DNA of 64,000 bases from Styela clava (lineage: Eukaryota), in contig NC_135257.1 in NCBI RefSeq assembly GCF_964204865.1, positions 21,948,001 through 22,012,000 of the forward strand. Direction: 5' to 3'. Numbering within the stretch: the first letter of the stretch is position 1; every line of letters begins with the position of its first letter. A program made the position numbers and the translations under genes. The notes under the pieces were generated by a model, which was not told the origin of the DNA, did not search any database, and worked only from the letters and a program-made list of their open reading frames with translations. This document shows, piece after piece, positions 14,069-58,000 of the stretch.

Positions 14069-14302
14069 GGGACTCCTGTAGTATGCGAACTAAGATGGCG
14101 GACACCGGAACGTAGTATGTGTACCAGGTTAGGGTTTGACCATAATTTTATTCTAATTTACCTTTTTTAGTTCTATTACGAAGTCGTGGACTAGCCAAGT
14201 GACTTTCGTAGTATTTATACTTGAAATTATGGCCAAACTCTAACCTGGTACACATACTACGTTCCGGTGTCCGCCATTTTGGTTGGCATACTACCGGTGT
14301 AC
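14069..14302. mobile_element. ~235-bp palindromic MITE family with AAGATGGCGG termini and TAACCCTAAC motifs; copies also ~15172-15405, ~32480-32718, 48466-48701, ~55934-56169
   Basis: Long inverted termini (GG.GCTCC.GAAGTATG.GAACCAAGATGGCGGAC...GTACCAGGTTAGGGTTAGGCCATAATTT) and a shared AT-rich core in five copies. Confidence 0.85.
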
Positions 14303-14432
14303 CGTTTTTTTGCATAATGCAGTAGAAATTTAACGGAAAAGGTTGGAAACCATTGTAATAATATACCCGACATGGGCTGGTATGGATCATAAATGAATAT
14401 CTATTTAAGAACTCGAGTTGCATGACCTAGTC

Positions 14433-15884
14433 CAGCGGTTCCCAAAGGGTACGTCGGGAAAATTAACAGAATTGTATTGAACGTAGCTAATATATGATTG
14501 AATATTTTACATATTGTAATTATTTTTATTTTATTTTAAATGCCGTGTATATGAAACAATAAATTCATTTCAGCTTTATATGTCGTTTACTTTCTGTTGC
14601 GTAGCATCTGCCTCTATTGTTACGTAACACTACTTGCTGCAATTTCGCGAGTTGCAGCTTCTTTATCTGATGAACCGAGTTGAGCAAACATGTGTGATTT
14701 TTTAATATTTCAAAAGAAAATCAGGCAGAGATGAGAAAAAAGAGTCGACCCTTTGTCTTTATTTTTTGCTTCATATTCCACATGTTTACAAACTTTGAAC
14801 GGCACAAAGTACACATTAACGATCACAAAATTCAGTTTCAACTAAAGGAAGCAATTTTGTTTCGAGTAAGTGTAAGAGTAAATATTTTGGCGCCGCACAA
14901 ACAAAAAGTTTGGGAACCGCTGGCCTAGACCTGCGTTTCCCAAACTGTGTTCCGCGAGTGTCTTACGAGTGTTCCGTTGAAAATTAATCAAAAATACGTC
15001 TAAATGGGTCGCCATGGCGATCTAGGAATCGTGCACTTGTCGCCCAACTGACCGTTCAATATCGCGTCACAGTCGGCCTGAAGCGGGCTAACTAAGGTAG
15101 GGTAGTGGCATTTTCGTTAACCGTCGGCCCACTTTTGGTTTTGTTATAGGCAAACAAGTAGATCTAAGGCAGGTGCTCCCGAAGTATGCGAACCAAGATG
15201 GCGGACATCGGAACGTAACATGGGTAACAGGTTAGGGTTAGGCGATAATTTTTTTCCAATTTTCCTTATTTTAGTCCTATTATCAGTTCGAAGACTAGCC
15301 AAGAGCCTCCCGTAGTATTTATACCTAAAATTATGGCCTAACCCTAACCTAGTACACATAATACATTCCGATGTCCGCCATCTTGGTTCGCATACTTCGG
15401 CATACCTAAGGCAAATGGTAAAATCTTCTTCCGCCATCTATGCCTGGTTTTACTTTGAAATGCTGAAAAAATTACTCATGTTCGCTAAACTCGATTCAGC
15501 AGATAAATAAACTGCAGCTCGCGAAGTTGCAGCAAGTACTTCTATCTCCATTAGACGTAACATTAGAGGCAAACACTACGTAATGGAAAGTAAACGATAT
15601 AGAAAGGTAACATGAATTTGTTTATTCATATAAACAGCATTCAAATTAAAAAGCAATAAAACATTTATAGGAAATGAAATATGTAAAATATTCAATCATA
15701 TTTTAGGTATGTTTAACACAATTCTGTTAGTTTTTGCGACGCATTTGGCAACTCGCCACGATGAACCCACTGGGAACCGCTTCATTACACCGTTTTTCTT
15801 TATCAATTTTACCCTTTCATTTTTTAGTGTTCCGCGAGGCGAGATAAAAAGTGTTCCTTCGCCGAAAAAGTTTGGGAAACGCTG
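14433..15884. mobile_element. Two abutting hAT MITEs (14433-14922 and 14931-15884) sharing an nCCTAGnC target; the second contains nested MITEs
   Basis: TIRs CAGCGGTTCCCAAA / TTTGGGAACCGCTG and C(T)GCGTTTCCCAAAC / TTTGGGAAACGCTG. Flanks ACCTAGTC, GCCTAGAC, ACCTAGAC. Confidence 0.75.
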
Positions 15885-31059: not shown

Positions 31060-31535
31060 TAAACGTATGCCTATGATATATAAACCATTAATTCCCACTT
31101 TGAAATTGATGTCGAAAATTTATTGAGAGTTTGAATAAAAATAGCAAAAATTCTATAACAGTATGACCTATGTGTTTACATAGTTTTATCTGTCATATTG
31201 TTTCGTTTTACCAGTCTGACTACTTTGCATTATAAAAATATGGTTGTAAAATTCAGAGATTTTGATATTTGATTTATGCAATTTTAAAAACTCGAAAATG
31301 AAAAGTATTACAAACTTGCCTCATTAATTCGAAATAAATTTTGCTCCAATGTAACATATTTTTCTTTGTTTTTTTCGTCGTCTTTCTCAAAGGAATCGGG
31401 TTGAGTTAAAAATAGTTCAGACTCGTTTAATTAAAAGAGCTTATCACATATAAATAGTAAATATATTATTGGGACAATCCGCCAAGAATGTTTGACTTTC
31501 CCATAAGTTAAATAGGATTCGAAGCTAGACAATAC

Positions 31536-32276
31536 ATAGGAGGGATGGGGGAGGTAGGGCATTAGGTCGGGGATAGGAAGTCTGGAGGCGATAGGGCAGT
31601 TGGTGGAGGAAAGGGAGGCTGAGGGAGATAGGGCAGTGGGTGGAAGGCAGATAGGGCAGTGGGTGGAGGAAAGGGAGGCTGAGGGAGATAGGAAAGTGTG
31701 TCGAAGACAGATAGGGCAGTGGGTGGAGGAAAGGGAGGCTGGGGAGATAGGAAAGTGTGTCGAAGACAGATAGGGCAGTGGGTAGAGGACATGGAGGCTG
31801 AGGGAGATAGGGCCGTGGGTGGAGAATAGGAAGGCAAAGGGCAGTGGTTCGGGAATATGAAGGACGGGAGAGATAGGGCGGTAGGTCGGGGATAATAGGG
31901 CTAAGGAAGTAAGGAGCAGTGGGTCTAGGATGTGAAGGCTGAAGGAGATAGAGCAGTAGGTTGTAACTGAGAAGGATGACAGGTATAGGGCAGTGAGCAG
32001 AAGATATGGAGGAGATAAGGCAGTGAGTTAAAGATAGGAGAGCTTAGGGAGTTAGGGTAGTGCGTCGATGATAGGAAGCCTAAGGGAGATAAGGCAGTGG
32101 GTCGAAATCGGAAGAATGAAGGAGATAGGGACGTAAATCGGAAGGACTTGGAAGATAGGGTAGATTATAGAAGATAGTAAGGTTGAAAGAGATAGAGCAG
32201 TGAGTACAAGATATGAAAGCTGAGGGAGATAGGGCAGTGAGTCAAAGACACGAACACTGATGGAGATAGGGCAGAA
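31536..32276 (+). repeat. Purine-rich minisatellite, ~35-37-bp unit GGAGATAGGGCAGTGGGTGGAGGAAAGGGAGGCTGAG
   Basis: About 20 degenerate tandem units with extreme G/A strand bias. Confidence 0.9.
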
Positions 32277-32940
32277 AGAAACACACGCGTGGAGTTGATA
32301 GCAAAGAACGCATTGTTCGCTACTAATTAATTTTCGTATGTAGTTGGAAATAAATTACGTGCACGACTAGTAATAATTAAATATATCGTATAAAACTATA
32401 TTTTTCATACATTTGCCTATTCGGGAGTTACATGCCTTGTTTATTTCAATATTCGATCTCATCATATGATGATAATTTGGGCGCTCCAGAAGTATGTGCA
32501 CCATGATGGCGGTGGACACCGGAATGTCGCATGTGTACCAGGTTAGAGACAGCCATAATTTTATTTCAATTTTCCTTAATTTAGTTCTAGTGCGAGTTCG
32601 GTGATTAGCCAAGTGACTCCCGTAATAATTGTACTTAAAATTATGGCCTAAACCTAACCTGGTACACATACGACGTTCCGGTGTCCGCCATCTTGGTGCA
32701 CATACTTCTGGAGTACCATAATTTGTGCATGCTAATATAATATCGAGATTGGCTGTTCATATCATTACTATTACAAACTGACCGCCAATAGAAGTCATGT
32801 GTCATCTTAAATATATCTTGGCAATTCGATTTATTTCTTGTATATACGTATTCGGCTATATCTGCTTTTGCAATGCAATAACTCGGACTTGAGAGGTGAT
32901 TGTAAACGAAAACGATTTTTTGACAGCCCTGCCTAGTTTT

Positions 32941-35800: not shown

Positions 35801-38800
35801 ATGAAAATCTCAATCGTTTTGATCTTAAACTACGTCATCACGACATCCTGGTGTCAGGATAAAACAGTGTTCCATTGCTCAGACAAGCGCATTGATGAAA
35901 ATCTGCATGACAAGGAATTCCCGATTACATGCAAATCTATGAACGCTACTGAATCAAGTAATACTGGCAACTGGCTTCCTGTCGTAACTCAAAATAGTTT
36001 AGGTAAGTGAGAACTATTGAACATCATTTTAAAATAGTTTAGGTAAGTAAGAACTATTGAACATCATTTTAAAATAGTTTAGGTAAGTAAGAACTATTGA
36101 ACATCATTTTAAAATAGTTTAGGTAAGTAAGAACTATTGAACATCATTTTAATCGGCGCTCCAGAAGTGTATCTACCAATTGGGGGGGGGGGGGGGGGGG
36201 GGGGGTAACTAGTATTATTCGCCTACTTTACATCAAGTTGTATTAAGTGACTGAAACCCATAGGCATGGTGTATATTCACATGGCTAACACGAACAGTCC
36301 CGAGACTCGTAATAGAGCTAAAATAAGAGAAATCGAAAAAAAAAAAATATTAACCTTACATTAACTTAGTACACACGCTACGGGAGTTGTAGTTTTCAAA
36401 CAGTTTGAATAGTTTATAATATGTATATACAAATTGTATAGTCGGCTAATGCTAAGTTAAGAATATAATAATGCTACAGCTGAACATGAAGCACAAATTT
36501 TTTTCCTAAAACATCAAAATTTCTTTCCTAGGGAGAATTACCATCTGGTTTAATAGAAATTTGGATTCAAATTTTTTTAAGAGTTTATATCTGTTCTTGA
36601 GTAAAACGATATTCATTAGAGATTAACAAGATTACTTCCAGGGGAAACATTCATTTCTCTGGGAGGAAGAATTATAGGAATCTGAAAATGTCATATTTTC
36701 CACCAGAAATTCGCGAGAATCGTAACAAGATCGCAAAACAAACAAACGAAATGAAAGATTTTCGTGATAGAACTCTTCAGCAATCTCGTCAAATTGACAA
36801 TCTACTGGAGGAAAACAAAGAACAAAACTCTGAAATCAGGGACTTGAGGAAAGGTTAGTAGTGCGTTGTCAAAGATTGACCGTTAGTTAATTATTGTTTC
36901 ATTAAAATCTAGGACTTTTACAATTTAAATCTGTGAGAATTTGAAGTTGACCTTGATATAAACATTCATACGTTTGGAAATATGGTTTAAAATAAGTATT
37001 TACGATACTATTAGAATACTTTCATAACTATATTCATCTTACAGAAAGTCGCGAGTTACGGAATAAACTTGTGCTGCAATCAGCCGAAATCGTTGACCTA
37101 AAGAAGAGCCGTGAAGAACAGTCAAGAGAAATTGGGGAATTGAAGAATGGTTTGTGTGACATTTTTAATACGGAATTTAATCTATAGTGATATGGAAATT
37201 CTTTTTGTTGTATGAGATCTCGGAAAAATGGGTCATATTGTAAACATGCTCCTATTATTCCGATATTCAAACTTGAAAAAAAAAATGTGCAGTATGGAAC
37301 TTATACTGAGTGCAGTAATAGGTCACACAAAATTCCAAATCAGCATAACGAATGAACACAACTTGAAATAGAAAAATGAAGATCAATAAGTAGGATTGGT
37401 AATTCACTGCACCCGTTGTTCAATGTGATCTTTCTTTTGATACAAAATAATTTGCAAAAAATTAGATATTTTATTCAAATTTAGAGTATAGTCGAGTTAC
37501 AAGATCAACTGCAAACAAATTGGCTTTTTTGAGGCTGAATTGGACGACATTTTGTTTCTGGTAATCCTGGAAATTGACGCTAACTTATGTATATTCTTCT
37601 ATTCAGCAATGGGTCGGATTAAAGAAAAATTCTCTGCAACGGAGAAGCCTCAACAGGTTCAATCTGGAAACCAACAGAGACCTACGACAACAACCAAAAC
37701 AACATTGAAACCGACACCTTCCCCAGGTAAATTACGTAGTCACATATCCAGAAGTAGGCCTATATGTACCAATATAGAGGTAACTAGTTTTGTTTGGCTA
37801 CGTTACATCAAGTTGTGTAAAGGGACTGAAACCTATGGGCAGGGGTTATATTCACTTGGCTAACGCAGACAGTCCTCGAACTCGTAATACAACTAAAGTC
37901 GCAGAGCCGCAGTCGGAGTCAAGTTTGTTTCAACCCGGAGTCGGGAAAAGATTGTATTTCCCACGACTGCACAGCTCTATCCAGGAGACCAAACTGACAA
38001 CTTTATGAGTGACAGTATGTATATAATTGGCGAAATTAATTTAATTTTCCCTAAACGTCGCGATTTGTGCTTTAAGAAGATGTCTGGCCAGACATCTACG
38101 AATGTGGAATTTGCCATGAGCAAAATTAGACTTGGGAACCAAGTATAGAGGCAAAAGACATATTCATCGGGTCTGTCAAACTTGTTGTTGTGTTCAATAA
38201 TAAAACTTTTCAAATTTATAAATCTGTAAGCTAAATTTTTTACATTTCAGAGAACTGCAAATTAAAGATTGAAAATATGTGTTATTTTGCTGTGATACAT
38301 GATCCATGGGATGTCGACTACGACAAAGCAGTTGATATTTGTAAGAAACGTAACGCAGATGTTGGTTTGATTCGAGATGAAGAATCTTTCAATGCGATTA
38401 TGAATTACTTGGTCAAGTATACTCCCATGGGATTTCGGGGGATGATTATATGGACAAGAATCCGCTTTGATCCAATGGTTAGTGCCATACGTATGTTCTA
38501 TATATAATCGAGCAATTTTTAAATGCAACGATGACATTGTTACCCATCCGGGACTTTTTACACATCAGTATAGTTTGACTTGCTGATGATTGTGATGGAA
38601 TTAGGTGAGTTAAGTGAATTAGGAATCTGTTAAATATCTGGTTTGTTTTTGTTAATTACTGTAGATTGCGCTATTTAGCACATCAGATTCTTTGAGTAGA
38701 GTGGGCACTGTAGTTCCAGGCCTTTTAAATGACCTACGTCTGTCCGAGTTATAACGAACATCCTAATCAGCGTTTAATTTTATCAATCCCATGCAGCATA

Positions 38801-39077: not shown

Positions 39078-39132
39078 AGAAACGTCTGCCTGGTTGTATT
39101 TTGTTCCGCTTGATCATATATTTTAAACCATT

Positions 39133-39739
39133 TGAAACTGCCTCTTTCGCTTCATTATATTTTTTGTTGTTTACCACTGGAGGCGCTGGTGGTACATACG
39201 TTCACAGATTTTAGTGATTGTGACATCATAATACCCCGTGCGCGTTTGCTGCGCGCGCTGCTTCAGTACCTTGATTCGACCTTCTCAGGACTGTGGGATT
39301 TGTGGTGCAAGGTTTTCGTTGTCTGGAGATTTGTAGTTCCAAGGTTTTAATTGTATTTTCATATATTTAGATTTAATAACATTAACTTAATTTCAATAAC
39401 TGTCCCAATCAACTGTCGATTGTTTTGTAAGCTGAAAGCTACACTGTCAAAAAACCGTACTGCCGTACTTCCCGTACACGTATTGATGTACTCTCTTACT
39501 GACGTACTCTCGTATCCACGTATTGTCGTAATCACGTACTGTTGTATTATCATACCTATAACATCGTACCGACGTATCTTCATACACCTGTACTTTCCTG
39601 ACAATAAACGACATCAACTTGTACTGTTATACGCGTCTTTTTGCATTGGAGTGACAAAATCAGTTTACTAAAACAGATCGACCATCTAAGAAATACACCT
39701 GGTGTGGGCGCTAAAGGCACTCCAAATTTGGCGTCTACA
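39133..39739 (+). repeat. 5' LTR (607 bp)
   Basis: Matches 46243-46849 with one mismatch seen (39496 T vs 46606 G); AATAAA at 39603-39608. Confidence 0.97.
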
Positions 39740-39784
39740 TTAGTTTTTTGACATTTGCAATACTGCAACAAAGTTTTTGAAAAT

Positions 39785-40732
39785 ATGGCCGAATCAAATG
39801 ACAACATCAATGAACCAGCTGCCGCTGATGAACTAGTGAACAGAGACAATGATATGTTAGAAAATATGTCGGTTACTGGATCTTCTGAAGCAACTGAAAA
39901 TAATGTAATTGCTTTGCAGACTATTCCAACACAAGATATAATTCCTGTTTTGCCTAATGAAAGTCAATCAACTTCTAAAGATTGTCATAGTGCGTCAATC
40001 AAAGATCTGTTCCTAAGAAGTCCTGATGTAGAGTCAGATGTCCAACCAAGTTCAGAAAAGAACAACCAAGGAGCATCTGTAGCATCTGGCCTTGCTAAAG
40101 AAGGATCAACAAATGCGCATGCTATGACAACAAGGTCGAAGACAAAGACAAATAAAAGCAGGACTTCAAAAATAAATAGTCAGCAACATAGATCAGTAAT
40201 GCGAAGTTTGATAACATCACGCAGTGGTACAATTCGGTCGCGATCTTCACGCTCAATAAGAATGTCCAATTTGAGTGATTCACAAATTGAGAATATATTC
40301 GAAACAAGAAAGCTGAATCAACAAAGGCGCACAGAATTGGAGAAACAACAATTGCAAAATCGCCTAGAAAGTGAGAAACAAATTTGGGAAAATAACAATC
40401 AAGTTGAAAACTTAAATTTAGACAATGAGTGGCAACAGATTCTACAAAAACAGCAAGCTGAAGAGCGTAAAAGAAAGGCCGAACTGGAAGCTTTTCAACA
40501 TCGTCGCCAACAAATGCTACAACGAAGAAACATCGAGATGGAGCAGTTCAACAAGAGGAAGCAGATGAACCTACAAGAAATTGAAGACAAAAACCAACGT
40601 GAACAATTGGAACTGGACACTAATTTAAATGAAACTTTAGCAGAAAGAGGCGTTCTTATAAATACGCCCCCTGTTGCTGCTAGTATCGAAATCAGTCAGC
40701 AGCCAGCCGAGTGCATGTGTGACTGCTGTTGA
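39785..40732 (+). CDS. BEL/Pao Gag N-terminal region (acidic, Ser/Arg-rich, coiled coil), out of frame with the downstream polyprotein
   Basis: First ATG after the LTR; SRSGTIRSRSSRS followed by an E/Q/K/R-rich helix; overlaps the long ORF in another frame. Confidence 0.75.
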   Translation: MAESNDNINEPAAADELVNRDNDMLENMSVTGSSEATENNVIALQTIPTQDIIPVLPNESQSTSKDCHSASIKDLFLRSPDVESDVQPSSEKNNQGASVASGLAKEGSTNAHAMTTRSKTKTNKSRTSKINSQQHRSVMRSLITSRSGTIRSRSSRSIRMSNLSDSQIENIFETRKLNQQRRTELEKQQLQNRLESEKQIWENNNQVENLNLDNEWQQILQKQQAEERKRKAELEAFQHRRQQMLQRRNIEMEQFNKRKQMNLQEIEDKNQREQLELDTNLNETLAERGVLINTPPVAASIEISQQPAECMCDCC

Positions 40733-43700
40733 ATCTGTGTGTGACATGGCCCAAATACCGTTAACATCTGAAAATTTGTTTGTGAGCTCTTGTAGTGTGG
40801 TGAATTCTGGTTTGACTTCCTGTGTACCTGCATCATGTGTATCTAAGCCAAGTTTAAGGTGTTGTGAAATTCCAATGTCATGTGTGGGTGATAACAGACA
40901 ATTGCAGAGCAATGCAATTTACACTGGGGCTGGAACGAACCACAGTGAAATATTAACGAAATTTCCAACTTCATTCAATACTATTCCATTGCATACGACT
41001 AGTTCGGCTGTTAATATGAACCCTACATTACCAACACTAATAGATAATCCTGGCAGAATTGAAAATGCAGAGGCAATGCACTCAGTGAATATTGGCTCAA
41101 TTCGAAAGCCTATTGTGGGCAGTCAACCAAGTAATGCAAATGCACAGAATGACAATATTTCGAATCAACAAGCAGCCAACCCTCAAGTTATATATGTGCC
41201 TCAAACTTTAGGTTTGCCACCATCTGAACCCCCTGTATTTTGTGGTAATGCAGGTGAATATAGGGATTTCATTGATATTTTTGAAACCGTAATTGGTAGC
41301 AGATTACAAAATCCAAAGCACAAACTAGTTTATCTTCTTCAATATACAAAAGGCCCTGCTCGTGCTTTGGTTAAGGGATGCCAGCACAGAACAGATAGCT
41401 ATGATGAAGCTATCCGATTACTTGAAGAAACTTATGGTCAGAAATTTCAAATTGGCGAATCCTGCATTAATTCCATAGCAAATGGTCCTCGACTGAATTT
41501 GAGTAACAAAGAATCATTAACTGTGTATTCAGCAGAAATCATGTCATGCAAAAATACGTTGATAGGGGTTGAATATAAAAATGTTGCCCTTATGACCATA
41601 GAAAAAATAGCTTTAAGAATGCCGCCTGAATGGAGATCTGGGTGGTTATCAAAGATGGACAATGTACTACAAATAAAGAAAAAAGACCTAACAATAGAGG
41701 ATCTTGCTGATTACGTCCGTAAGAAAACTAGAGAAGTATGCAATGTTCCCTCTATCGAATTTAATACTTCAAAACAAATTATTCCCACAAGAGGCTCGAG
41801 GCCATACAAATCCTCATTTGCAACTACAGTTCATAATAATAGACCTGTACGCAGATGTGTAAAATGTGATGGAGATCATTACTTAAATCAATGCGATGAA
41901 TTTCGAGGCATGACGTATGATAAGAGATTGGAGTTTGTAAAAAAGCAAAAGTTGTGTTTTTCATGTTTATTATCTGGGCATTGGGTCAGGGAATGTAAAC
42001 GAAACAACCCTTGCAAAAATGCAAACTGCAGAAGAAAACACACAACACTTCTTCATCCTCCGGATAAGGAACCAATAAAAGTCCCTACATCAAGTAGTCA
42101 TGAAAGTACTACACAAACACATAATGATTATAGGACACAGATGTCTGAAACCAAATTTAATGCATTCCTAAATGCCTCTGACGAACAAAAGGTTTTGCTC
42201 AATGTTGTACCTGTTAAGGTACGCATAGCTGGTAGAAGAAATGCTGTTATAACCAATGCATTCTTTGACAATGGATCGACTTGCTCTTTTATAAGCAATT
42301 CGCTGATGAATAAATTAAAGGTCAATGGACCAGTTACAAATCTGAACATTCGTACGATAAATAATACTGTGGAACACAAGCAATGCACTGTTATAAAGAA
42401 CCTCGAATTAGCAGATTTCGAGGAGTCAAAATATGTAAGGTTAAATCCCTTGTTTTCAAACGATCAAATTGGTGTTGATCAAACAGATATCCCTACACAA
42501 AGTGATCTTGATCAATTTAAAGAATTTAATGGTATTGTGATACCCAAAGTAGAATGTGATGTGGAGCTCTTGATTGGCAAAGATAATCTTGGTTTGCATA
42601 AACCATTGGAAGTGATTTATGGCCCAAACAATTATTTTGCATTGAAGACAATTGCTGGATGGATGGTTAACTGCCCTGCGAAAAATGGAAATACCAAAAA
42701 TTCTACATATTTCACCAAATCTCAACTAAATCCTTTGTGCCAAATGTGTGCAGATGTTGTTGATTCTGCAATTAATGAAAAAGATGAAGTTTCACCAATT
42801 CAACAAGTTTTTCTTGACAAAGTTAGTAAGTCAATTAAGCTCAGAACTGATGGACATTACGAAATAGGTTTACCATTGAAGAATCCTGATGTTAAGTTGC
42901 ACTCAAATAAATATCAAGTTTTGCAGCGAGCAGAATCATTAAAGCGTCGTCTTCACAAGGAACCGGAATTTTATGCAGAATACAAGGATTTTGTTGCAAA
43001 TATGATCACAATGGGTTATGCTGAAGAAGTTCTGGATGCCAATGAAGAAGAAGGAAGGACTTGGTACCTCAGTCATCATGGAGTTCGTCATCCAGAGAAG
43101 AAAACATTGAGGGTTGTATTTGACTGCTCTGCAAAATCAGAAGGAATTTCATTTAATGACATCCTGTTACAGGGGCCGGATTTAACAAATAATTTAGTTG
43201 GAGTCTTGTCACGCTTTCGCAAAAATATTGTAGCTGTTCAAGGGGATATACGGTCCATGTTTCATCAGGTAAAGGTGAAAGAATGTGATAGAAATTTCCT
43301 CCGTTTCTTCTGGTGGGAAAATGGTGACATCACTTTACCCATGAAAATTTATAGAATGGCGGTTTTTCTCTTTGGAACTGTGTGCTCTCCCAGTTGTTGC
43401 AACTTTGCTTTGAGACAAACTGCAATAGACAACAAAGATGATTTTGAACAAAGTGTGATTGATGCAATTAATGATTCATTTTATGTTGATGATTTTTGTG
43501 ATTCTAAACCGGATGCTGCTAGTGCCCTCCAACATATAAAGAGTGTTACTGAAATTGCTGCTAAAGGTGGTTTTGAAGTGACGAAATGGGTGAGCAATGA
43601 CCGTGAAGTATTGGCCTCAATTCCAGAAGCTCACCGATCGAAGGAAGCAAAGCGTTTGGATATCTCTATAGATGAATTGCCTGTTGAGCGAGCTCTTGGC

Positions 43701-46094
43701 ATGATATGGAACGCAAATGAAGATACAATAAGTTTCAGTACTAAATACACTGAACGACCAGCTACCAGACGGGGTATGCTGGGTGTTGTGAACTCAATAT
43801 TTGACCCTCTTGGCATTGGCCAGCCGGTCATTCAACCTATGAAGGTCCTTATGCAAGGATTGTGCAGGAAGAAGCTGGGATGGGACGATTCAATTCCTCC
43901 AGAGTGTGAACAGGAATGGCTAAAGTGGATATCAGAATTATCCAAGTTAGAAGATTTTAATATTCCAAGATGTTTTTTACCGCCTGATTTTGGAAAAACC
44001 ACAGAAATACAAATTCATCACTTTTCTGATGCATCCGAAAAGTCTTATGGTGCTGTTTCATATATACGTTTAAAAAATTCGTCTGGACAAATTCATTGCT
44101 CAATACTGTGTGGTAAAAGTCGATTAGTACCTCTCAAAGGCTCAACGATTCCCAGGTTAGAGTTATGTGCAGCAACAATATCTGCGCGAAATGAAAAATT
44201 CTTCCGTAAAGAACTCAAGCTCCCAATTGATGCATCTATATTTTGGACGGATAGCACCACCGTATTACGATATTTGGCAAATACTGATAAAGTTCTAAAA
44301 ACTTTTGTTGCAAACAGGGTGAATGTTATCAAAGAAGTTTCTGATGTGAATCAATGGTACTATGTGCCTTCCAAATTAAACCCTGCAGATGTTGCATCTA
44401 GGGGCATGTCTGCTGATCAATTTTTGAACTACCCACAATGGAAATTTGGACCAGAATTTTTATGGAAAAATCAGGAAGAATGGCCTAAACAACCAGATTT
44501 CCTGCATACAATGAATGATAAGAATTTGGAATTTAAAAAGCAGAGTCCAGATTCACAGATGTGTTTTGCTCTAAATACAGATATACCTACTGTATTAGAC
44601 CAAGTTACTAATAAATATTCAAATTGGTTCAAAATGAAGAAGATTGTAGCATGGGTTTTACGTTACAAGCGAGCACTGCTTTCCAAGGTCAGAGAGGATG
44701 TTTCTTGCAATTTGGGGAGTGAAAATAATAAATTTTTATCTGTGGATGAAGTGAACTTGGCAGAATTGGAAATAATCAAAAATGAACAATTCAAATATTA
44801 TTCAAAGGAAATTAATGTATTGACCAAAGGTGAACAATTGCCAAAATCAAGTTCATTGTGTAAATTGCAGCCTATTATGAAAGAAGGTCTTCTCCGTGTT
44901 GGTGGAAGAATTGGAGCATCGAGTCTTCAATATGACGCAAAACATCCTATAATAATTCCAAACAAGAGTTCTATTGCTAATTTGATTATTGAACATACTC
45001 ATCAAGTTACAGGCCATAGTGGAAGAGAATATGTAATTGCTGAATTACATCAAAAGTTCTGGATTATAAAAGCAAATGCAATGACACGAAAGATTCTCAA
45101 CAACTGTATATCTTGTCGCAAGAGACAGCGGGCACCTGAATCTCAATTGATGGCCGACCTCCCAGAAGACCGATTAATACCAGACAAGCCACCTTTCTCT
45201 TTTGTCGCTCTTGACTGTTTCGGTCCATTTCTTGTTCGTCAAGGACGAAGCGAAGTAAAAAGATATGGTGTTATTTTCACTTGCCTAGTGACCCGTGCAG
45301 TGCATGTTGAAATTGCACATAGCCTAGATACAAGTGCCTTTATAATGTCTCTTAGAAGATTCATTTCAAGAAGAGGACAAGTAGTTGAAATAAGATCAGA
45401 TAACGGAACAAATTTTGTCTCTGGAGAACAAGAATTGAGAAATTCTATCAAGACTTGGAATCAGAATCAAATACATAGGTTTTTGCTGCAAAAGAACATC
45501 AAGTGGCTGTTTCAAACTCCAGCGGCTTCTCACCATGGTGGAGTTTTTGAGAGACAAATCAGAACAATTAGAAAAATTTTCAACGCTATTTGCAGAGAAC
45601 AAAAATTAACTGATGAAAGCTTAATTACACTTATGTGTGAATGTGAATCCATAGTGAATGGAAGGCCAATAACAACTGTATCCAATGATCCAAAAGATTT
45701 GACTCCTTTGAGCCCGAACAATTTGTTGTTGTTGAAAGAAGAACCGATACTTCCTCCAGGAGTATTTGATGCTAAAGACTTGTATGTTCGTAAGAGATGG
45801 AAACAAGTACAATACTTAGCTGATGTGTTTTGGAAAAGATGAAGACGAGAATACCTTCCTCTGCTTCAAACAAGACAAAAATGGAACAAAGTTCAAAGGA
45901 ATTTAGCTAAGAATGATGTTGTACTTGTGATGGATGAAAATTTGCCAAGAAATGCATGGCTGTTGGGTAGAATCATTGGAACGTTTCCCGACAACAAAGG
46001 CCGTGTACGTTCTGCTACGGTGCAAACCAACCATTCAATCTTAGATAGGCCCATTACTAAATTAATTCTTCTGTGTGCAAGTGACTCTGATTGA
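40674..46094 (+). CDS. BEL/Pao Gag-Pol polyprotein, interrupted by a premature TGA at 45840-45842
   Basis: DUF1759-like Gag (PPVFCGNAGEYRDF), three Cys/His knuckles, protease FFDNGST, RT YVDD, RNase H HFSDASEKSYG, integrase HHCC and D-D-E (LDCFGP, SDNGTNF, FERQIR). The frame continues past WKR* as RREYLPLLQTRQKW...RPITKLILL (DUF5641-like) to TGA at 46092-46094. Confidence 0.95.
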
Positions 46095-46242
46095 GTTGTG
46101 TGCAAAACCCATTTCGTTTGACTCTAGTTGAATTGTGTGTATGTGAGATCAATTCCGTTTTTAAATTTTGTGATTTTGTTTTTGAGTGTGTAGAAATTTC
46201 AAATTTGTGGATGGCAAATTCTCAATTTCTAAGGGGCCGGGA

Positions 46243-46849
46243 TGAAACTGCCTCTTTCGCTTCATTATATTTTTTGTTGTTTACCACTGGAGGCGCTGGT
46301 GGTACATACGTTCACAGATTTTAGTGATTGTGACATCATAATACCCCGTGCGCGTTTGCTGCGCGCGCTGCTTCAGTACCTTGATTCGACCTTCTCAGGA
46401 CTGTGGGATTTGTGGTGCAAGGTTTTCGTTGTCTGGAGATTTGTAGTTCCAAGGTTTTAATTGTATTTTCATATATTTAGATTTAATAACATTAACTTAA
46501 TTTCAATAACTGTCCCAATCAACTGTCGATTGTTTTGTAAGCTGAAAGCTACACTGTCAAAAAACCGTACTGCCGTACTTCCCGTACACGTATTGATGTA
46601 CTCTCGTACTGACGTACTCTCGTATCCACGTATTGTCGTAATCACGTACTGTTGTATTATCATACCTATAACATCGTACCGACGTATCTTCATACACCTG
46701 TACTTTCCTGACAATAAACGACATCAACTTGTACTGTTATACGCGTCTTTTTGCATTGGAGTGACAAAATCAGTTTACTAAAACAGATCGACCATCTAAG
46801 AAATACACCTGGTGTGGGCGCTAAAGGCACTCCAAATTTGGCGTCTACA
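46243..46849 (+). repeat. 3' LTR (607 bp)
   Basis: Direct repeat of the 5' LTR, preceded by the PPT and followed by the TSD. Confidence 0.97.
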
Positions 46850-48217
46850 CCATTAATTCCTAATTTGAAATTGCTGTCGAAAATTTATTGAGAGTTTGAT
46901 TATCAGGATTTTTTGTTTTGCAGATCTAACTACTTTGCATTCTAATGGTATAGATGTGAAATTTAGAGATTCAATGTTTAATTCGGGTAATTTTAGAAAT
47001 TCTGAAACAAAAATATTATGTACTTGACTCATTGATTCAAAATAAATCCGGCTTCCATAACAGGTCTCTTGCATCCTAGCCATCTAGACAGGGGTACTAG
47101 GTTTTCGAACGACGGGCCAAACATTTCGTCCACCTAGACTGGCTGACTGACATGTAAGTGTGACATGAAAAGTGAACATTTTATGAACAATATAGTGGAG
47201 AACAATAAGCCTCGTGCCCAAACTAAATTTTATTGCAATCTCAATCCCTTGAGCTATTTTTTAGCTGAAACATCAAAATTTAGTTTAGTTCGGATGTGGA
47301 AGCATCAGGCAGGTCAGATTGAATTACCCAAAGGATCATATTTGGGCCGCAGGACGTAGTTTGCCCATGTTAGATCTAGATGCATTCTGATATGATTATG
47401 TAGGTAAGGTAAGTTGTCCTTCAGCCCTCACAACGTCTCTACATGAAAATCGGTTGAAACGACGAATATATTCAGATATTAGTCAAATCCTTAAACGTTT
47501 GGTTTCTGTGATCACGTGCGTGGTATGAAAGCATTGTTTATATCTAAAGAGGAAAACGATACGACGGCTCAATCTTATGGCGAACCATGGCCTTCTTTCA
47601 GTTACCACTTCATATCGGGAAGGGAAATTGTTAATCGATTAGTTGTTGCTGATGAATGAACTTCATTAAGGATTATTCGCTATTTGATTAAGGCGACCCC
47701 AGAGCAGAGCCAGGGTTAGGCTCTCGATAGTGAAAAAGACATGAAGTTGGATACTCCGCCGCTGTGTCGTCGATTCCTGCTACCTCGTCGTGTACCATAA
47801 TTTTCTTCCGATTTTCCTTATTTTAATTCTTTTACGATTTCCCACACAGTCTGTGTTAGCAAAGTCAATATAACACTGCCTGTCGTAATCTTTCCTTCAC
47901 ACAACTTGATGTAAAGTAGACGGACAAAATTAGTTACCTGCATAAGGTTGCAAAATTGCGTATGTCCCCAAGTCATAACCACATTTCTGCCTAAGTCACA
48001 GTGCGCCATTATGACGTCACTTAACTGCGTCATACAAGTTAACTTAAATCCGGCTACGATCAAAAAATTGAACCATGGCAAATTATTGACTCTCAATGGC
48101 ATAACAATATCATTAGGAAGTTTTTTACGTTTTTCTCAAAACTGCTAAAAATGATTTACGCAATTCGGTTATTAGCGTGACGATATGATAGTTGAGTTTA
48201 ATAACTTACACTTAGAA

Positions 48218-51200
48218 TGAGCGCGGATGCCATGGAGCATTGCGGACGTATAGTTTGCAGTGGCCTAAAGCCAGCCATGGATGTGGTCTATAAATATGTG
48301 CATGGTTGAAGTGAATAATAATTTTACTTTTTCAAGTTGCGAGGACACATAAATTGTCCCGGGGAAACTGAGAACCAGTGACCCCCTATAGGAGGTGAAC
48401 ACCCCCGTCTTCTGAAATTTGAAAAGGTGTGGCACCAAACTTCAATTCTTGGGTAAATAAAAATGGGGGCTCCCGAAGTATGCGAACCAAGATGGCGGAC
48501 ATCGGAATGTAATATGTGTACTAGGTTAGGGTTAGGCCATAATTTTAGGTATAAATACTACGGGAGGCTCTTGGCTAGTCTTCGAACTGATAATAGGACT
48601 AAAATAAGGAAAATTGAAAAAAAATTATGGCCTAACCCTAACCTGTTACCCATGTTACGTTCCGATGTCCGCCATCTTGGTTCGCATACTTCGGGAGCAC
48701 CGTTTTATCACTAATAGCAAAATATTTACTACCCCCTAAATTTCGATCAACAATTAAAATATAAAGCTGGGAAACGTACTAATAAGAACTAACTAGAAGA
48801 AAATACGATCCAGTCAACACACTTACTTTGAACCGCGAGTTTCAGAACAACGAGTTACGAGTGGCGTCATTTATTAGAGTAGCAACCTCGTGGAAGTTTG
48901 AATGAGATTTGCTGCATTTCATGGTTACGTATTGCTTTGGAATAAACACAAACAAATTTTATTCATTCAGTTATAACGTAAATATCCTGAAACCTCGAGA
49001 TGAAAATCTCAATTGTTTTTATCTTAATCTGCGTTATCACGACATCCTGGTGTATGAACGCTACTGAATCAAGTAATACTGGCAACTGGCTTCCTGTCGT
49101 AACTCAAAATAGTTTAGGTAAGTAAGAACTATTGAACATCATTTTAATCGTCGCTCCAGAAGTGTATGTACTAATATGGGGGGGTAACTAGTATCATTCG
49201 CCTTCAAGTTGTATATATAGATTGAAATCCATGGGCATGGTGTATATTCACATGGCTAACACAGACAGTCCCGAAACTCGTAATAGAGCTAAAATAAGAG
49301 AAATCGGAAAAAAATTATAACCTAACATTAACTTAGTACACACGCTACGGGAGTTGTTGTTTTCAAACAGTTTGAATAGTTTATAATACGTATATACAAT
49401 TTGTATAGTCGGCTAATGCTAAGTTAAGAATATAATAATGCTACAGCTAAATATGGAGCAAAAATTTTTTTTTCCTAAAACATCAAAATTTCTTTCTTAG
49501 GGAGAATTACCATCTGGTTTATTAGAAATTTAGATTCAAATTTGTTGGAGAGTTTATATCTGTTCTTGAGTAAAACGATATTCATTAGAGATTTACAAGA
49601 TTACTTCCAGGGGAAACATTCATTTCTCTGGGAGGAGGAATTATAGGAATCTGAAAATGTCATATTTTCCACCAGAAATTCGCGAGAATCGTAACAAGAT
49701 CGCAAAACAAACAAACGAAATAAAAGATTTCCGTAATAGAACTCTTCAGCAATCTCGTCAAATTGACAATCTACTGGAGGAAAACAAAGAACAAAACTCT
49801 GAAATCAGGGACTTGAGGAAAGGTTAGTAGTGCGTTGTCAAAGATTGACCGTTAGTTAATTATTGTTTCAATAAAATCTAGGACTTTTACAATTTAAATC
49901 TGTGAGAATTGGAAGTTGACCTTGATATAAACATGCATACGTTTGGAAATATGGTTTAAAATAAGTATTTACGATACTATTAGGATATTTTCATAACTAT
50001 ATTCATCATACAGAAAGTCGCGAGTTACGGAATAAACTTGTGCTGCAATCAGCCGAAATCGTTGACCTAAAGAAGAGCCGTGAAGAACAGTCAAGAGAAA
50101 TTGGGGAATTGAAGAACGGTTTGTGTGACATTTTTACTACGGGATTTAACCTAGTGGTATGGAAATTGTTGTATGATATCTCGGAAAAATGGGTTATATT
50201 GTAAACATGCTCCTATTATTTCGATATTCGCACTTGAAAAAAAAAATGTGCAGTATGGAACTTATACTGAGTGCAGTAATAGGTCACACAAAATTCCAAA
50301 TCAGCATAACGAATGAACACAACTTGAATTAGAAAAGTGAAGATCAATAAGTAGGATTGGTAAATCACTGCACCCGTTGTTCTATGTGATCTTACTTTTG
50401 ATACAAAATAATTTGCAAAAAATTAGATATTTTATTCAAATTTAGAGTATAGTCGAGTTACAAGATCAACTGCAAACAAATTGGCTTTTTTGAGGCTGAA
50501 TTGGACGACATTTTGTTTCTGGTAATCCTGGAAATTGACGCTAACTTATGTATATTCTTCTATTCAGCAATGGATCGGATTGAAGAAAAACTCTCTGCAA
50601 CGGAGAAGCCTCAACAGGTTCAATCTGGAAACCAGCAGAGACCAACGACAACAACCAAAACAACATTGAAACCGACACCTTCCCCAGGTAAATTACATAG
50701 TCACATATCCAGAAGTAGGCCTATATGTACCAATATAGAGGTAACTAGTTTTGTTTGGCTACGTTACATCAAGTTGTGTAAAGGGACTGAAACCTATGTG
50801 CAAGGGTTATACTCACTTGGCTAACACAGACAATCCTCGGACTCGTAATACAACTAAAGTCGCAGAGCCGCAGTCGGACTCAAGTTTGTTTCAACCCGGA
50901 GTCGGGAAAAGATTGTATTTCCCACGACTGCACAGCTCTATCCAGGAGACCAAACTGACAACTTTATGAGTAACAGTATATATATAATTGGCGAAAGTAA
51001 TTTAATTTTCCCTAAACGTCGCGATTTGTGCTTTAAGAAGATGTCTGGCCAGACATCTACGAATGTGGAATTTGCCATGAGCAAAATTAGACTTGGGAAC
51101 CAAGTATAGAGGCAAAAGTACATATTCATCGGGTCTGTCAAACTTGTTGTTGTGTTCAATAATAAAACTTTTCAAATTTATAAATCTGTAAGCTAAATTT

Positions 51201-55010: not shown

Positions 55011-58000
55011 AATGCTTTTGAATTTATCATCGATTATTTCCAAATATCAATTTCCTTGTATTTTTCTCACCAAAAGGGCAACATTGACGTAACAATTTAA
55101 ATAAGTGAAGCAGAGGGATTTTGAGGCGTGGAAGTTAAGACAAACATCCATTGAGTTAGAGAAGTGATAAATCAGCTTCAAATGCATGTAAGCCGTATTT
55201 TCATTTCCCCGAAATCAAAAGTCAAAACGTTTACCAGAAACTTAAATTTCTCGGAAAATATAACTTTTAGTGTTTCCTATTAAACTTGGTTTTCCCAGAT
55301 TCTGAGCGGATTTCGAATAATTCGGAGAAGGTTGAAACCTACGACCGCAAATGAACATATCTATTGAGGAGTTGAATTTTGAATTCCGAGTCTATTTTTT
55401 GATTGGCTAAAGCAGGATAAAAATTTGACACCGCCGTTTCACTAATATAAATACAGTCGGAGTTCAATTCCTTTTCATATCGGAGTTTGTTTTATTGCAT
55501 AATTAGAATCCGGAAAAAATTCGGCCTTCGCAGTTTAAGCGATAGTAGTCATTGTGCTAAACTGTGGGTCATTGTGCTAAACGTAAGGAATACGCTCACC
55601 ATCCCGACTCTGATTACTCTGCATGGGTTCGCAGGTTTCAATCCGATCAAAAATCCGGTTTGAACTCACAAGGCTTCGATAAATCAACACTACATACCTA
55701 TGTTGTAACCCCAGTTGTGAGTTGTTATCACTGGGAATCTTCGTCGTCTTGGATTCATTTTCCAGGCTAGTGACGTCATAAAGTTAACATCTTCCTTCTA
55801 TAATGAAGTATTGATATGATATATAATGACGCAACAGGAATGTTTATTACATTATGACGCCACATACCTGGCAAGATGGCAGAATTATCGTTCGCTCAGA
55901 CGGTCCGCCTGAATAAATTAAAGTAGTTTGAATGGTATTCCCGTAGTATGGAAACCAAGATGGCGGTCACCGCAACAAAGTATGTGTACCAGGTTAGAAT
56001 TAGGCCATAAATTTAGGTACAAATATTACGGGAGTCACTTAACTAGTCCCCGAACTCTTAAAAGGACTAAAATAAGGAAAATTGGAATAAAATTATGGTC
56101 TAACCTTAACCTGGTACACATACTACGTTCCGGTGGCCGCCATCTTGGTTCACATACTACGGGAGCGCCGTTTAAATAGATGACAGGGGCACTTTTAAGT
56201 ACGAAAAGTGTTTAGGAAGAATGAATGAGAAGATTTGGTGCTATACTATAGCGTGAGATCTACCTCCACTAAGTACCATGCGGAGACCTTGAGTACCGTA
56301 CCTCCGTAATACGTGTACCAGGTTAGGGTTGGCCATACTTTTATTTTGATTTTTCTTATTTTATTTCTATTGCGAGTTTGGGAACTGTCTGTGTTAGCCA
56401 AGTGAATATACCGCCTGCACATCATAGGTTTTCGTTATTTTACACAACTTTATGTAACATAGGCGAACAAAATTAGTAACTTCCATATTGGTAGTTTGGT
56501 ACACATACTTATGTAGCGCCAGCCCTTGTTCTACTCACCACATCCTGTTCTTGATGGGATTGGTAAGATTCCTTTCGCAGGTGATCTTTTCGTCCATGGA
56601 TGTTTTACTCCTTGCCGTGACAAATTTGACAAGGTAAAATCTATTTTGTACGCCGATTGACAAGTTGATAGTGGGGTTTTGTCTTCACTCATTTTGCTGT
56701 TTATCACGTTGTTACTTCGGTTTTGTATTTGCCTCGAAGTGACGTCACACACTGGTCGATAACATATCCGTGCCAAGTGAATTGCCTTTTGTAAAATGAA
56801 CAACAGAGCATAACTCAAATCTCGTGCACGGAGTTTGCTGAAGGGATCGCCAGTCAAGCGATATGGAATCCAAAATGTTCTCCTTTGTTTATTTAAGTTA
56901 ATACAGCAAAATTTTTGCTGAAATTTCGTGCCCAATAGAGATTTTAAAATGAAATTAAAAGCTGTTTCCCATTCCTTGCAGAGAGAAGTGATTTTTCCCA
57001 ACAGCAGTGAAAGTAAACCCCAATAAAAACAAGCGAGAATTTAGCAGAATAATACATATGCAAACTTCTTGTTCAACAAGAGAACATTGCTTTACAATGT
57101 CGTCACGAAAGTAGTACCGGCACTATACATACTGAAATTAGGCCCAAATCATATTTATTGTGGACAAGATTAAGGCAAACCTATTATTATTTGGATCTCC
57201 TGAAGTATGCGCCCCAAGATGGCGCACAACCTGCACTCAGATTGTGTACCCGGTTAGGGTTCAGGTTGTGTGCCCATACTTCAGGAGTATGGACACTGTA
57301 ATAGCTTACCTTGTGCGATTGTGGATTATGGCGTCGTGTTGGTGACGTAGGGCGCATCAATGTTTTGCTGACTATTTTATGAATAAACTGATCGTTGTAA
57401 TTTGAGACCGGCGGCTTAAGTTGAAACGTTGCAAGTAAGCTAAAACGGTTATGGTATATTTTAGGAAACAGTTTTTTTTTTCTTTGTATCTCATGTTGTA
57501 TGAAAGTGAAATATCTAGGTAACGTATGGAAATGATAGGCTTCTTCCACAAATACGGTACTACAAATTTTGAATTTTATTGTTCCATTTGTTTAAAAGGA
57601 AAGCAATTTTTCATAACCCCAATAACATTTTAGCAAAACTCTCCATAATTTCTGTCCGATAATTAAATGTTATTGCTATTTTTCATCGATCAAATAAAGA
57701 TGAAAAGCCAGTTTTTTGAAAGACTTGTGAAAAACTTCTAATCGGTGCATTTATCACATTTAAATGGTAAGGCATCCTAGACAGCAAGATTTATAATTAA
57801 ACTGTTTTATTAGCTTTCTTCTTTGCGAAAATATATTTTCCATATAACAAAACAAACACTTTTATTGTGCAAATACATATTTATCAGACATAGCCATCCA
57901 AGGCTAATAAAATCCATATTCGATTTTTAGTTTTCTATGATGCCTATATTGTTAGCATATATTCCCGACCAAAAATATGGAAATCCAGATAATAATTTAG

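Follow-up and report, generated by a model that had tools for sequence, protein, structure and literature searches.

The locus analysed here raises a simple question: why should the LTRs of a retrotransposon carry a run of CGTAC-like pentamers, mostly 8 nt apart, that starts immediately after a putative self-primer? The window, by which we mean the whole stretch of 64,000 nucleotides from Styela clava, had been interpreted before from its letters and open reading frames. That original prediction described a conserved core in fixed phase with free spacers, and offered a multivalent protein-binding lattice, an unstructured linker aiding pairing or strand transfer, or a DNA factor or methylation array as explanations.

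A young BEL/Pao element with the array in both LTRs

The array lies in both LTRs of a young BEL/Pao retrotransposon on the forward strand, flanked by a 5-bp target-site duplication (TSD; left 39128..39132, right 46850-46854). The 5' LTR (39133..39739, 607 nt, TG...CA) is 226 nt shorter than the LTRs of sister copies and differs from the 3' LTR (46243..46849) by a single mismatch, at 39496. It contains 11 nt complementary to the element's primer-binding site (PBS), which are the predicted self-primer (39445..39455), followed by the array, a degenerate 8-nt tandem repeat of about 17 units that begins on the first base past the primer (39456..39596), and by an AATAAA predicted from the sequence as the likely poly(A) signal (39603..39608). 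The PBS itself (39743..39753) has no TGG start and is complementary to 39445-39455.

Two open frames fill the interior. The first (39752..40732, 326 aa from stop to stop) encodes the N-terminal part of gag. The second (40662..45842, 1726 aa) encodes DUF1759, three zinc knuckles (41856-42056), protease, RT, Peptidase_A17 and integrase, and stops in-frame at 45842, earlier than in sister copies, two of which keep one uninterrupted frame each (2186 and 2232 aa). The frame break lies near 40.7 kb, where 218 nt present in a sister are missing from the window copy. This gap was considered as a second lost intron and ruled out, since its ends are not GT-AG. Downstream, a polypurine tract (PPT, 46231..46242) precedes the 3' LTR, whose array copy (46566..46706, 16 YRTAY matches) equals, letter for letter, the array carried by the commonest young sisters.

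Three Gag zinc knuckles are a mark of the BEL/Pao family, and the three-knuckle Gag domain invoked by the original prediction is indeed present. Pfam searches matched PF05380 (Peptidase_A17, E 2.9e-48) and PF03564 (DUF1759, E 2.8e-12) besides RT and integrase. The domain order in Pol (protease, RT, A17, integrase) is Pao-type and not that of the Ty3/gypsy (chromovirus) elements, and the LTR length (within 0.2-1.2 kb), PPT and TSD are likewise those of BEL/Pao. The closest named protein, 97% identical, is labelled as from the ascidian Styela clava, and the remaining named matches, mostly from fish, have 41-48% identity.

The element sits inside one copy of a local duplication (35.7-39.1 kb plus 46.85-47.6 kb versus 48.9-52.8 kb). 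Because the repeat offsets on the left (12962) and right (5240) differ by 7722, which equals the element plus its 5-bp duplication, the second copy, near 52.09 kb, is the empty site. The window also holds a MITE-like family of about 230 nt with long terminal inverted repeats (14097-14310, 15172-15411, 32511-32724, 48471-48705 and 55939-56173), a purine-rich tandem array with 23/37/60-nt units (31526-32274) and a near-perfect 40-nt array of four copies (35991-36152).

Phase and composition of the array

CGTAC-like pentamers stand at the positions listed in the original prediction, and the strict motif YRTAY matches 15 times in the 5' LTR and 16 times in the 3' LTR, the background in the 64-kb window being 0.0096 per nt. 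The 17 listed units are thus correctly placed, although two are not intact: the unit at 39527 reads CGTAA, and the one at 39495 is disrupted, as had been noted, by the sole LTR mismatch at 39496. The claimed 8-nt phase is beyond chance. None of 2000 dinucleotide shuffles reached 11 gaps of 8 or 16 nt, and none reached the lag-8 identity of 0.51 seen in the array. The YRTAY count alone is largely compositional, with a shuffle mean of 10.3 and 13 of 2000 shuffles reaching 15. The extent of the array, from the base directly following the 11-nt PBS complement to 6 nt before the AATAAA at 39603, was also confirmed.

The spacers had been said all to differ, and here the description does not hold: 14 of the 17 are distinct, with TGA, TCT and TGT occurring twice each, and the spacer base at unit position 6 is T in 11 of the 17 units. 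Identity between spacers was 0.62 at lag 2 and 0.67 at lag 5, compared with 0.30 expected, and Tandem Repeats Finder returned periods of 8, 16 and 40 within the array. The spacers recur in 16- and 40-nt blocks, and so are not free. The original prediction had set its reading against an amplified single 8-mer. Such an amplification is largely what is found, in the form of block duplications of 16 and 40 nt.

Two further properties ascribed to the array were not borne out. It was called CpG-rich for this genome; its observed/expected ratio is 2.17, yet the ratios of 0.98 in the window and 0.80 in the fetched loci reveal no depletion, and the idea of a CpG island in a depleted genome was rejected on the window value. 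Elsewhere in the element the ratio was 0.56 in the internal region (39740-46242) and 0.99 in the LTR outside the array. The suggestion of an unstructured linker is unsupported, the array folding like its own shuffles (z 0.19).

A GT-AG intron divides the predicted self-primer

Sister LTRs match the window LTR over its positions 1-318 and again from 319 onward, with about 226 extra bases in between (the sister LTRs are longer by 226 or 230 nt). The insert begins with GTACGT and closes with ATTTAG, a pyrimidine tract preceding the TTTAG, and shows the marks of a U2-type spliceosomal intron: a GT donor, the pyrimidine tract, a YAG acceptor and precise removal from RNA, the last in probable RNA runs. 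The LTR of the window element's family holds a GT-AG intron, and the junction alone yields the 11-nt PBS complement, to which exon 1 contributes 6 nt and exon 2 the other 5 (junction 39450|39451). The window copy lacks the intron in both LTRs (junction 46560|46561 in the 3' LTR), and the loss is precise. A genome-wide pattern search recovered the joined form twice, both times in the window element, versus 21 donor sites, which makes the window copy the sole intron-less copy found by this search.

The spliced form is present in contigs of probable RNA runs. Contigs of X1 and X2 (63 and 79 million letters, versus 316 million for X10; both runs are taken as RNA on a software guess) join position 1405 to 1632 of the sister copy L069, skipping 226 nt with GT..AG ends. 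The same joint was absent from contigs of X6 and X10, and the unspliced intron is covered by contigs as well. A second joint in X1 connects the donor with a shorter type of array, beginning at unit eight. This type matches the intron-bearing copies L017, L019 and L020, not the window copy, and the pattern search found no intron-less copy of it in the genome, so this joint likely reflects real splicing. In the family of L046, a joint to its own acceptor was not seen in three probable RNA runs (X1, X2 and X7).

The spliced contigs hold 21 and 30 letters of the upstream exon, so they either start upstream of the primer or derive from the 3' LTR; contigs cannot show transcript ends or strand. The 5' end at the primer start is a predicted one, and spliced contigs extend 21-30 nt upstream of the donor. 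The premise of a self-primer does hold up, and we consider it very likely that the primer is built by splicing.

Other contigs of the probable RNA runs exit the LTR exactly at the donor into unrelated sequence (L069:1405 and L046:1598, in one case with a depth of 176). They may represent chimeric transcripts, driven by the LTR and spliced into exons of the host; their non-LTR sequence was not placed among the fetched loci.

Predicted primer and PBS change together across families

From 376 candidates, 150 were scored and 60 BEL/Pao loci, chosen for long frames, were fetched. Three without an LTR pair and 11 without TSD-refined ends were dropped, leaving 46, which together with the window element make 47 delimited elements in 17 families. 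L033 was rejected as a segmental repeat. None of the 47 delimited elements has a TGG-type PBS start or the 18-nt PBS for tRNA-Arg or tRNA-Gly, a count that, like those below, is not fully independent because the elements are related.

All 17 families have a PBS complement inside their own LTR. In eight, an intron of 74-287 nt that has a canonical donor interrupts it, and exon 2 invariably supplies 5 nt; in nine it is contiguous (9-14 nt). The split score was reached by none of 300 shuffled PBSs for each of seven representatives; the eighth, L074, carries an acceptor change from AG to GG at about position 716 that is confined to the 5' LTR, while the 3' LTR and its sister copy are intact. For the contiguous complements, 0-12 of 300 shuffles reached the observed match. 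Both halves of the primer change between families together with the PBS, and the complement averages 11.0 nt within a family versus 7.2 nt across families (n = 272).

On a quick Pol tree the split/contiguous label requires 2 changes, versus a shuffled mean of about 6, and with the tree unrooted one gain and two losses of the split primer are a possible history. The contiguous primer of L077, L080 and L098, which follows a CAG, also allows a reading in which a 162-nt GT-AG segment interrupts it (LTR about 271-433), and this gives 14 nt instead of 12. It is possibly an intermediate state.

Metagenomes were scanned with a 5-row alignment, the 17-row alignment being too divergent. They yielded 79 loci, 35 of them with a flanking repeat, from which 11 were picked by eye for a readable LTR end. 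Nine of these 11 have a split primer (4-11 nt on the exon-2 side) and two a contiguous one, and 0-1 of 200 shuffles reached them. No relative was found among viral contigs.

In the predicted fold of 39441-39800, both the MFE and the centroid structure pair the primer with the PBS and stack this helix on a 16-bp stem formed by the U5 end and a 3-nt spacer (39700..39742). Taken over all 360 nt, the fold does not exceed its shuffles in stability (z -0.78); for the last 83 nt of a sister LTR the z is -2.56. Across the families, a stem at the U5 end is among the two most stable of the LTR in 9 of 17, with z < -2 in only 6.

Repeats begin at the predicted primer end

Primer ends were taken from PBS pairing and not from the repeats. 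The offset test covered 27 elements, with 10 of the 11 metagenome elements since L148 and L152 share one PBS, and in both this and the periodicity test the primer end of L041 was lengthened by one G:U pair. Summed over the 27 elements, the recurrence of 4-mers stayed between 11 and 14 from offset -6 through -1 and was 55 at offset 0, with 12 expected. When the three CGTAC families were removed, the rise was from 11 to 38 at offset 0. The first 4-mer was repeated at least twice in 13 of the 27 elements, versus 18.4% of random LTR positions, and recurred fewer than two times in the other 14. The boundary reads AY^C in 22 of the 27. Across these elements, short repeats begin exactly at the predicted 3' end of the primer.

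In 11 of the 17 families the 45 nt after the primer fall in the top decile of LTR periodicity. The more distant families have other units, with periods of 5-11 nt, and a foreign metagenome element, L161, has a clear 11-nt array.

Variation of the array among sister copies

The window element's family has 14 distinct arrays, with 5-19 cores in 59-213 nt (L034 was left out, its array end having been mis-called). Among 87 pairs, the poly(A) side of the array was the more shared in 73 and the primer side in 7. Array length varies mostly at the primer end, and some differences between sisters are internal. In the 13 other distinct sister arrays, substitutions were about equally frequent in core (18 events in 85 columns) and spacer (12 events in 49 columns). 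The TA positions of the core changed least, which could reflect selection, in 3 events over 34 columns, small numbers from repeat alignments that can slip.

The two LTRs of L067 (G000:C2:18.80-18.81 Mb) show no substitutions and differ by one leading array unit, and also by a 4-nt duplication within the intron. In L017 (G000:C9:5389961-5391204) and L020 (G000:C6:5456873-5458138), the LTRs are duplicated internally: a partial array runs straight into U3 at position ~91, and a second intron and array come after it. The arrangement resembles the outcome of a second template jump into the array.

Origin of the array

We hypothesize that the array is a degenerate, variable-number 8-nt repeat that out-of-register minus-strand transfer has lengthened and shortened at the cut end of a probably splice-assembled self-primer, and we regard this as the probable, if by no means certain, explanation. 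The spliced junction would pair with the PBS on the U5 stem, and the RNA would be cut at the 3' end of the primer, mostly at AY^C, as in Tf1. Strong-stop DNA would then end at the first array base and jump to the array copy at the 3' end of the RNA. A landing out of register by 1, 2 or 5 units would duplicate or delete leading units, which would later drift. Misaligned templates and misaligned template switches cause insertions, according to the accessible part of PMC3187697. The core would look conserved because units are re-copied from the constrained bases after the cleavage site, not through selection on each unit. The intron would usually survive because the 3' LTR copy of the RNA stays unspliced, and the window copy would stem from an RNA spliced in its 3' LTR as well. 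The link between array and strand transfer drawn in the original prediction holds up. That the same applies to a wide branch of BEL/Pao, we judge evenly balanced: in this branch the spliceosome would assemble the primer in the LTR, the intron would be inherited as only the 5' copy is spliced and consumed, and arrays would record the cleavage site together with transfer slips, making that site readable from the genome sequence.

Selection might instead maintain the array, if several copies of the cleaved end within R offered multiple acceptor sites and better transfer efficiency. That the units set in precisely at the predicted cut and reiterate its first 4-7 bases is what one would then see, as are the long arrays (15-16 cores) of young copies with near-identical LTRs. 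Many young families, however, have little or no array (L042, L081 and L093), and the about equal change of core and spacer columns also speaks against it; we find this account unlikely.

We find distinctly unlikely the lattice of the original prediction, in which the array would putatively be bound, as a packaging signal, by Gag's three-knuckle domain or by an RNA-binding protein of the host. The array lies between primer and AATAAA, so it would be present at both ends of the RNA. The three knuckles are there, the TA positions vary least, and CGTA units persist in three families at 66-70% Pol identity. The lattice reading, with its conserved core, free spacers and fixed phase, does not hold up, however: core and spacer change about alike, spacers are inherited in blocks and the number of cores ranges from 5 to 19. 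A phased array had been expected in related families, and the two closest sister families do keep the CGTA units but lose the strict phase. Units are moreover family-specific and always run from the primer end, although a lattice for protein binding has no need of such a start.

Still less probable is an ordinary minisatellite, produced by replication slippage or unequal recombination with no relation to reverse transcription. Such a process would fit the duplicated blocks of 16 and 40 nt, a core and spacer that decay equally, and the internal indels; it gives no reason to expect the step precisely at offset 0 among unrelated families whose units differ, or the 73 versus 7 polarity, and an acceptor and primer upstream would only bound the repeat without setting its phase. 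Least probable of all is an RNA-processing element (exonic splicing enhancers at the LTR 3' splice site, or poly(A) upstream elements, adjusting the choice of LTR copy for splicing or cleavage), for although the array runs from 5 nt after the acceptor to 6 nt before AATAAA, contigs show spliced and unspliced forms, and three units carry TGTA, UGUA being the CFIm site, repeats also follow the primer in families without a split intron (L041, L052, L055, L063 and L077), and host factors would favour one motif where the units differ by family.

A splice-assembled self-primer, if real, would have consequences beyond the array. Host splicing would control when the retrotransposon can be copied, and the elements would be freed from silencing by tRNA fragments. 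Searches for contiguous complements miss a split primer, which would explain the failure of PBS finders on these elements. The array would serve as an independent marker, drawn from sequence alone, of the predicted cleavage site, so that the mechanism becomes testable through the ends of RNA and strong-stop DNA. The intron-less copy would be a natural record of an LTR-spliced RNA that was still copied and inserted.

Comparison with known systems

Belpaoviridae, with the genus Semotivirus, are defined with an 18-nt PBS for tRNA-Arg or tRNA-Gly, and the ICTV describes their replication as poorly understood (PMC8742986). The elements studied here agree with the family in Peptidase_A17, DUF1759, three knuckles, the order PR-RT-RH-IN, a 5-bp TSD and a PPT (PMC8742986), with LTRs of 0.47-1.09 kb here, but they differ in that the PBS complement lies in their own LTR and that all 47 lack a TGG-type PBS. 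A term search of the BEL/Pao survey PMC3118150 returned no mention of priming, PBS, tRNA, introns or splicing in its accessible text, and that of the Sinbad paper (PMC554778) contained only unrelated uses of priming and splicing terms. Listings and the beginnings of abstracts yielded no paper on self-priming BEL/Pao elements, on an LTR intron that splits a primer or on repeats phased on a primer, with subscription papers, Repbase and GyDB outside the scope of this search.

Variable-number tandem repeats inside LTRs are known from retroviruses and Tnt1, in the portion of PMC3601003 available to us. Those repeats lie in U3 and have a transcriptional role, whereas the present array is downstream of the primer, in the predicted R, and phased on the primer end. 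Self-priming has been reported or predicted for Tf1/sushi, Tcn1 and TAR elements, as far as the excerpts of PMC6317226, PMC4600332 and PMC5341516 extend. The TAR elements (Houba, Osr-1), plant Ty1/copia retrotransposons, resemble the present case in that a self-primer was predicted where LTR and PBS are complementary over at least 10 nt (PMC6317226, in part). Their primer is contiguous and they belong to another superfamily. Half-tRNA-primed elements (copia, Osser and Bianca type) have a PBS that pairs with the 5' half of a tRNA; the PBS of the present elements varies between families in step with the LTR. The contiguous blastn test, as described in the available part of PMC6317226, would miss a primer split by an intron.

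The Tf1 group shares more than one feature with the window element. A U5 stem reportedly lies next to the primer helix in Tf1, and such a stem is predicted beside the primer helix in the window element. In the accessible parts of PMC7175516, PMC4600332, PMC5341516 and PMC6317226, Tf1/Tf2 and Tj1 of Schizosaccharomyces, Tf1/sushi and Tcn1 also have an 11-nt LTR complement of a non-tRNA PBS just past the LTR. A cut by RNase H at the primer 3' end belongs to the Tf1 type (PMC7175516, in part) and is predicted for the BEL/Pao element. In Tf1 the primer is made up of the RNA's first 11 bases, as its available description has it, whereas here spliced contigs, which cannot show starts, reach 21-30 nt upstream of the donor. 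The Tf1 group is furthermore Ty3/gypsy, while the window element is BEL/Pao, has a primer split by a spliceosomal intron and carries family-specific tandem repeats from the predicted cut onward. By analogy in priming and cleavage the window element would work like Tf1, but it is no member of Tf1/sushi. Taken alone, the array is a modest variable-number repeat; what is new is its exact start at the predicted primer end, beside a self-primer that is probably assembled by splicing.
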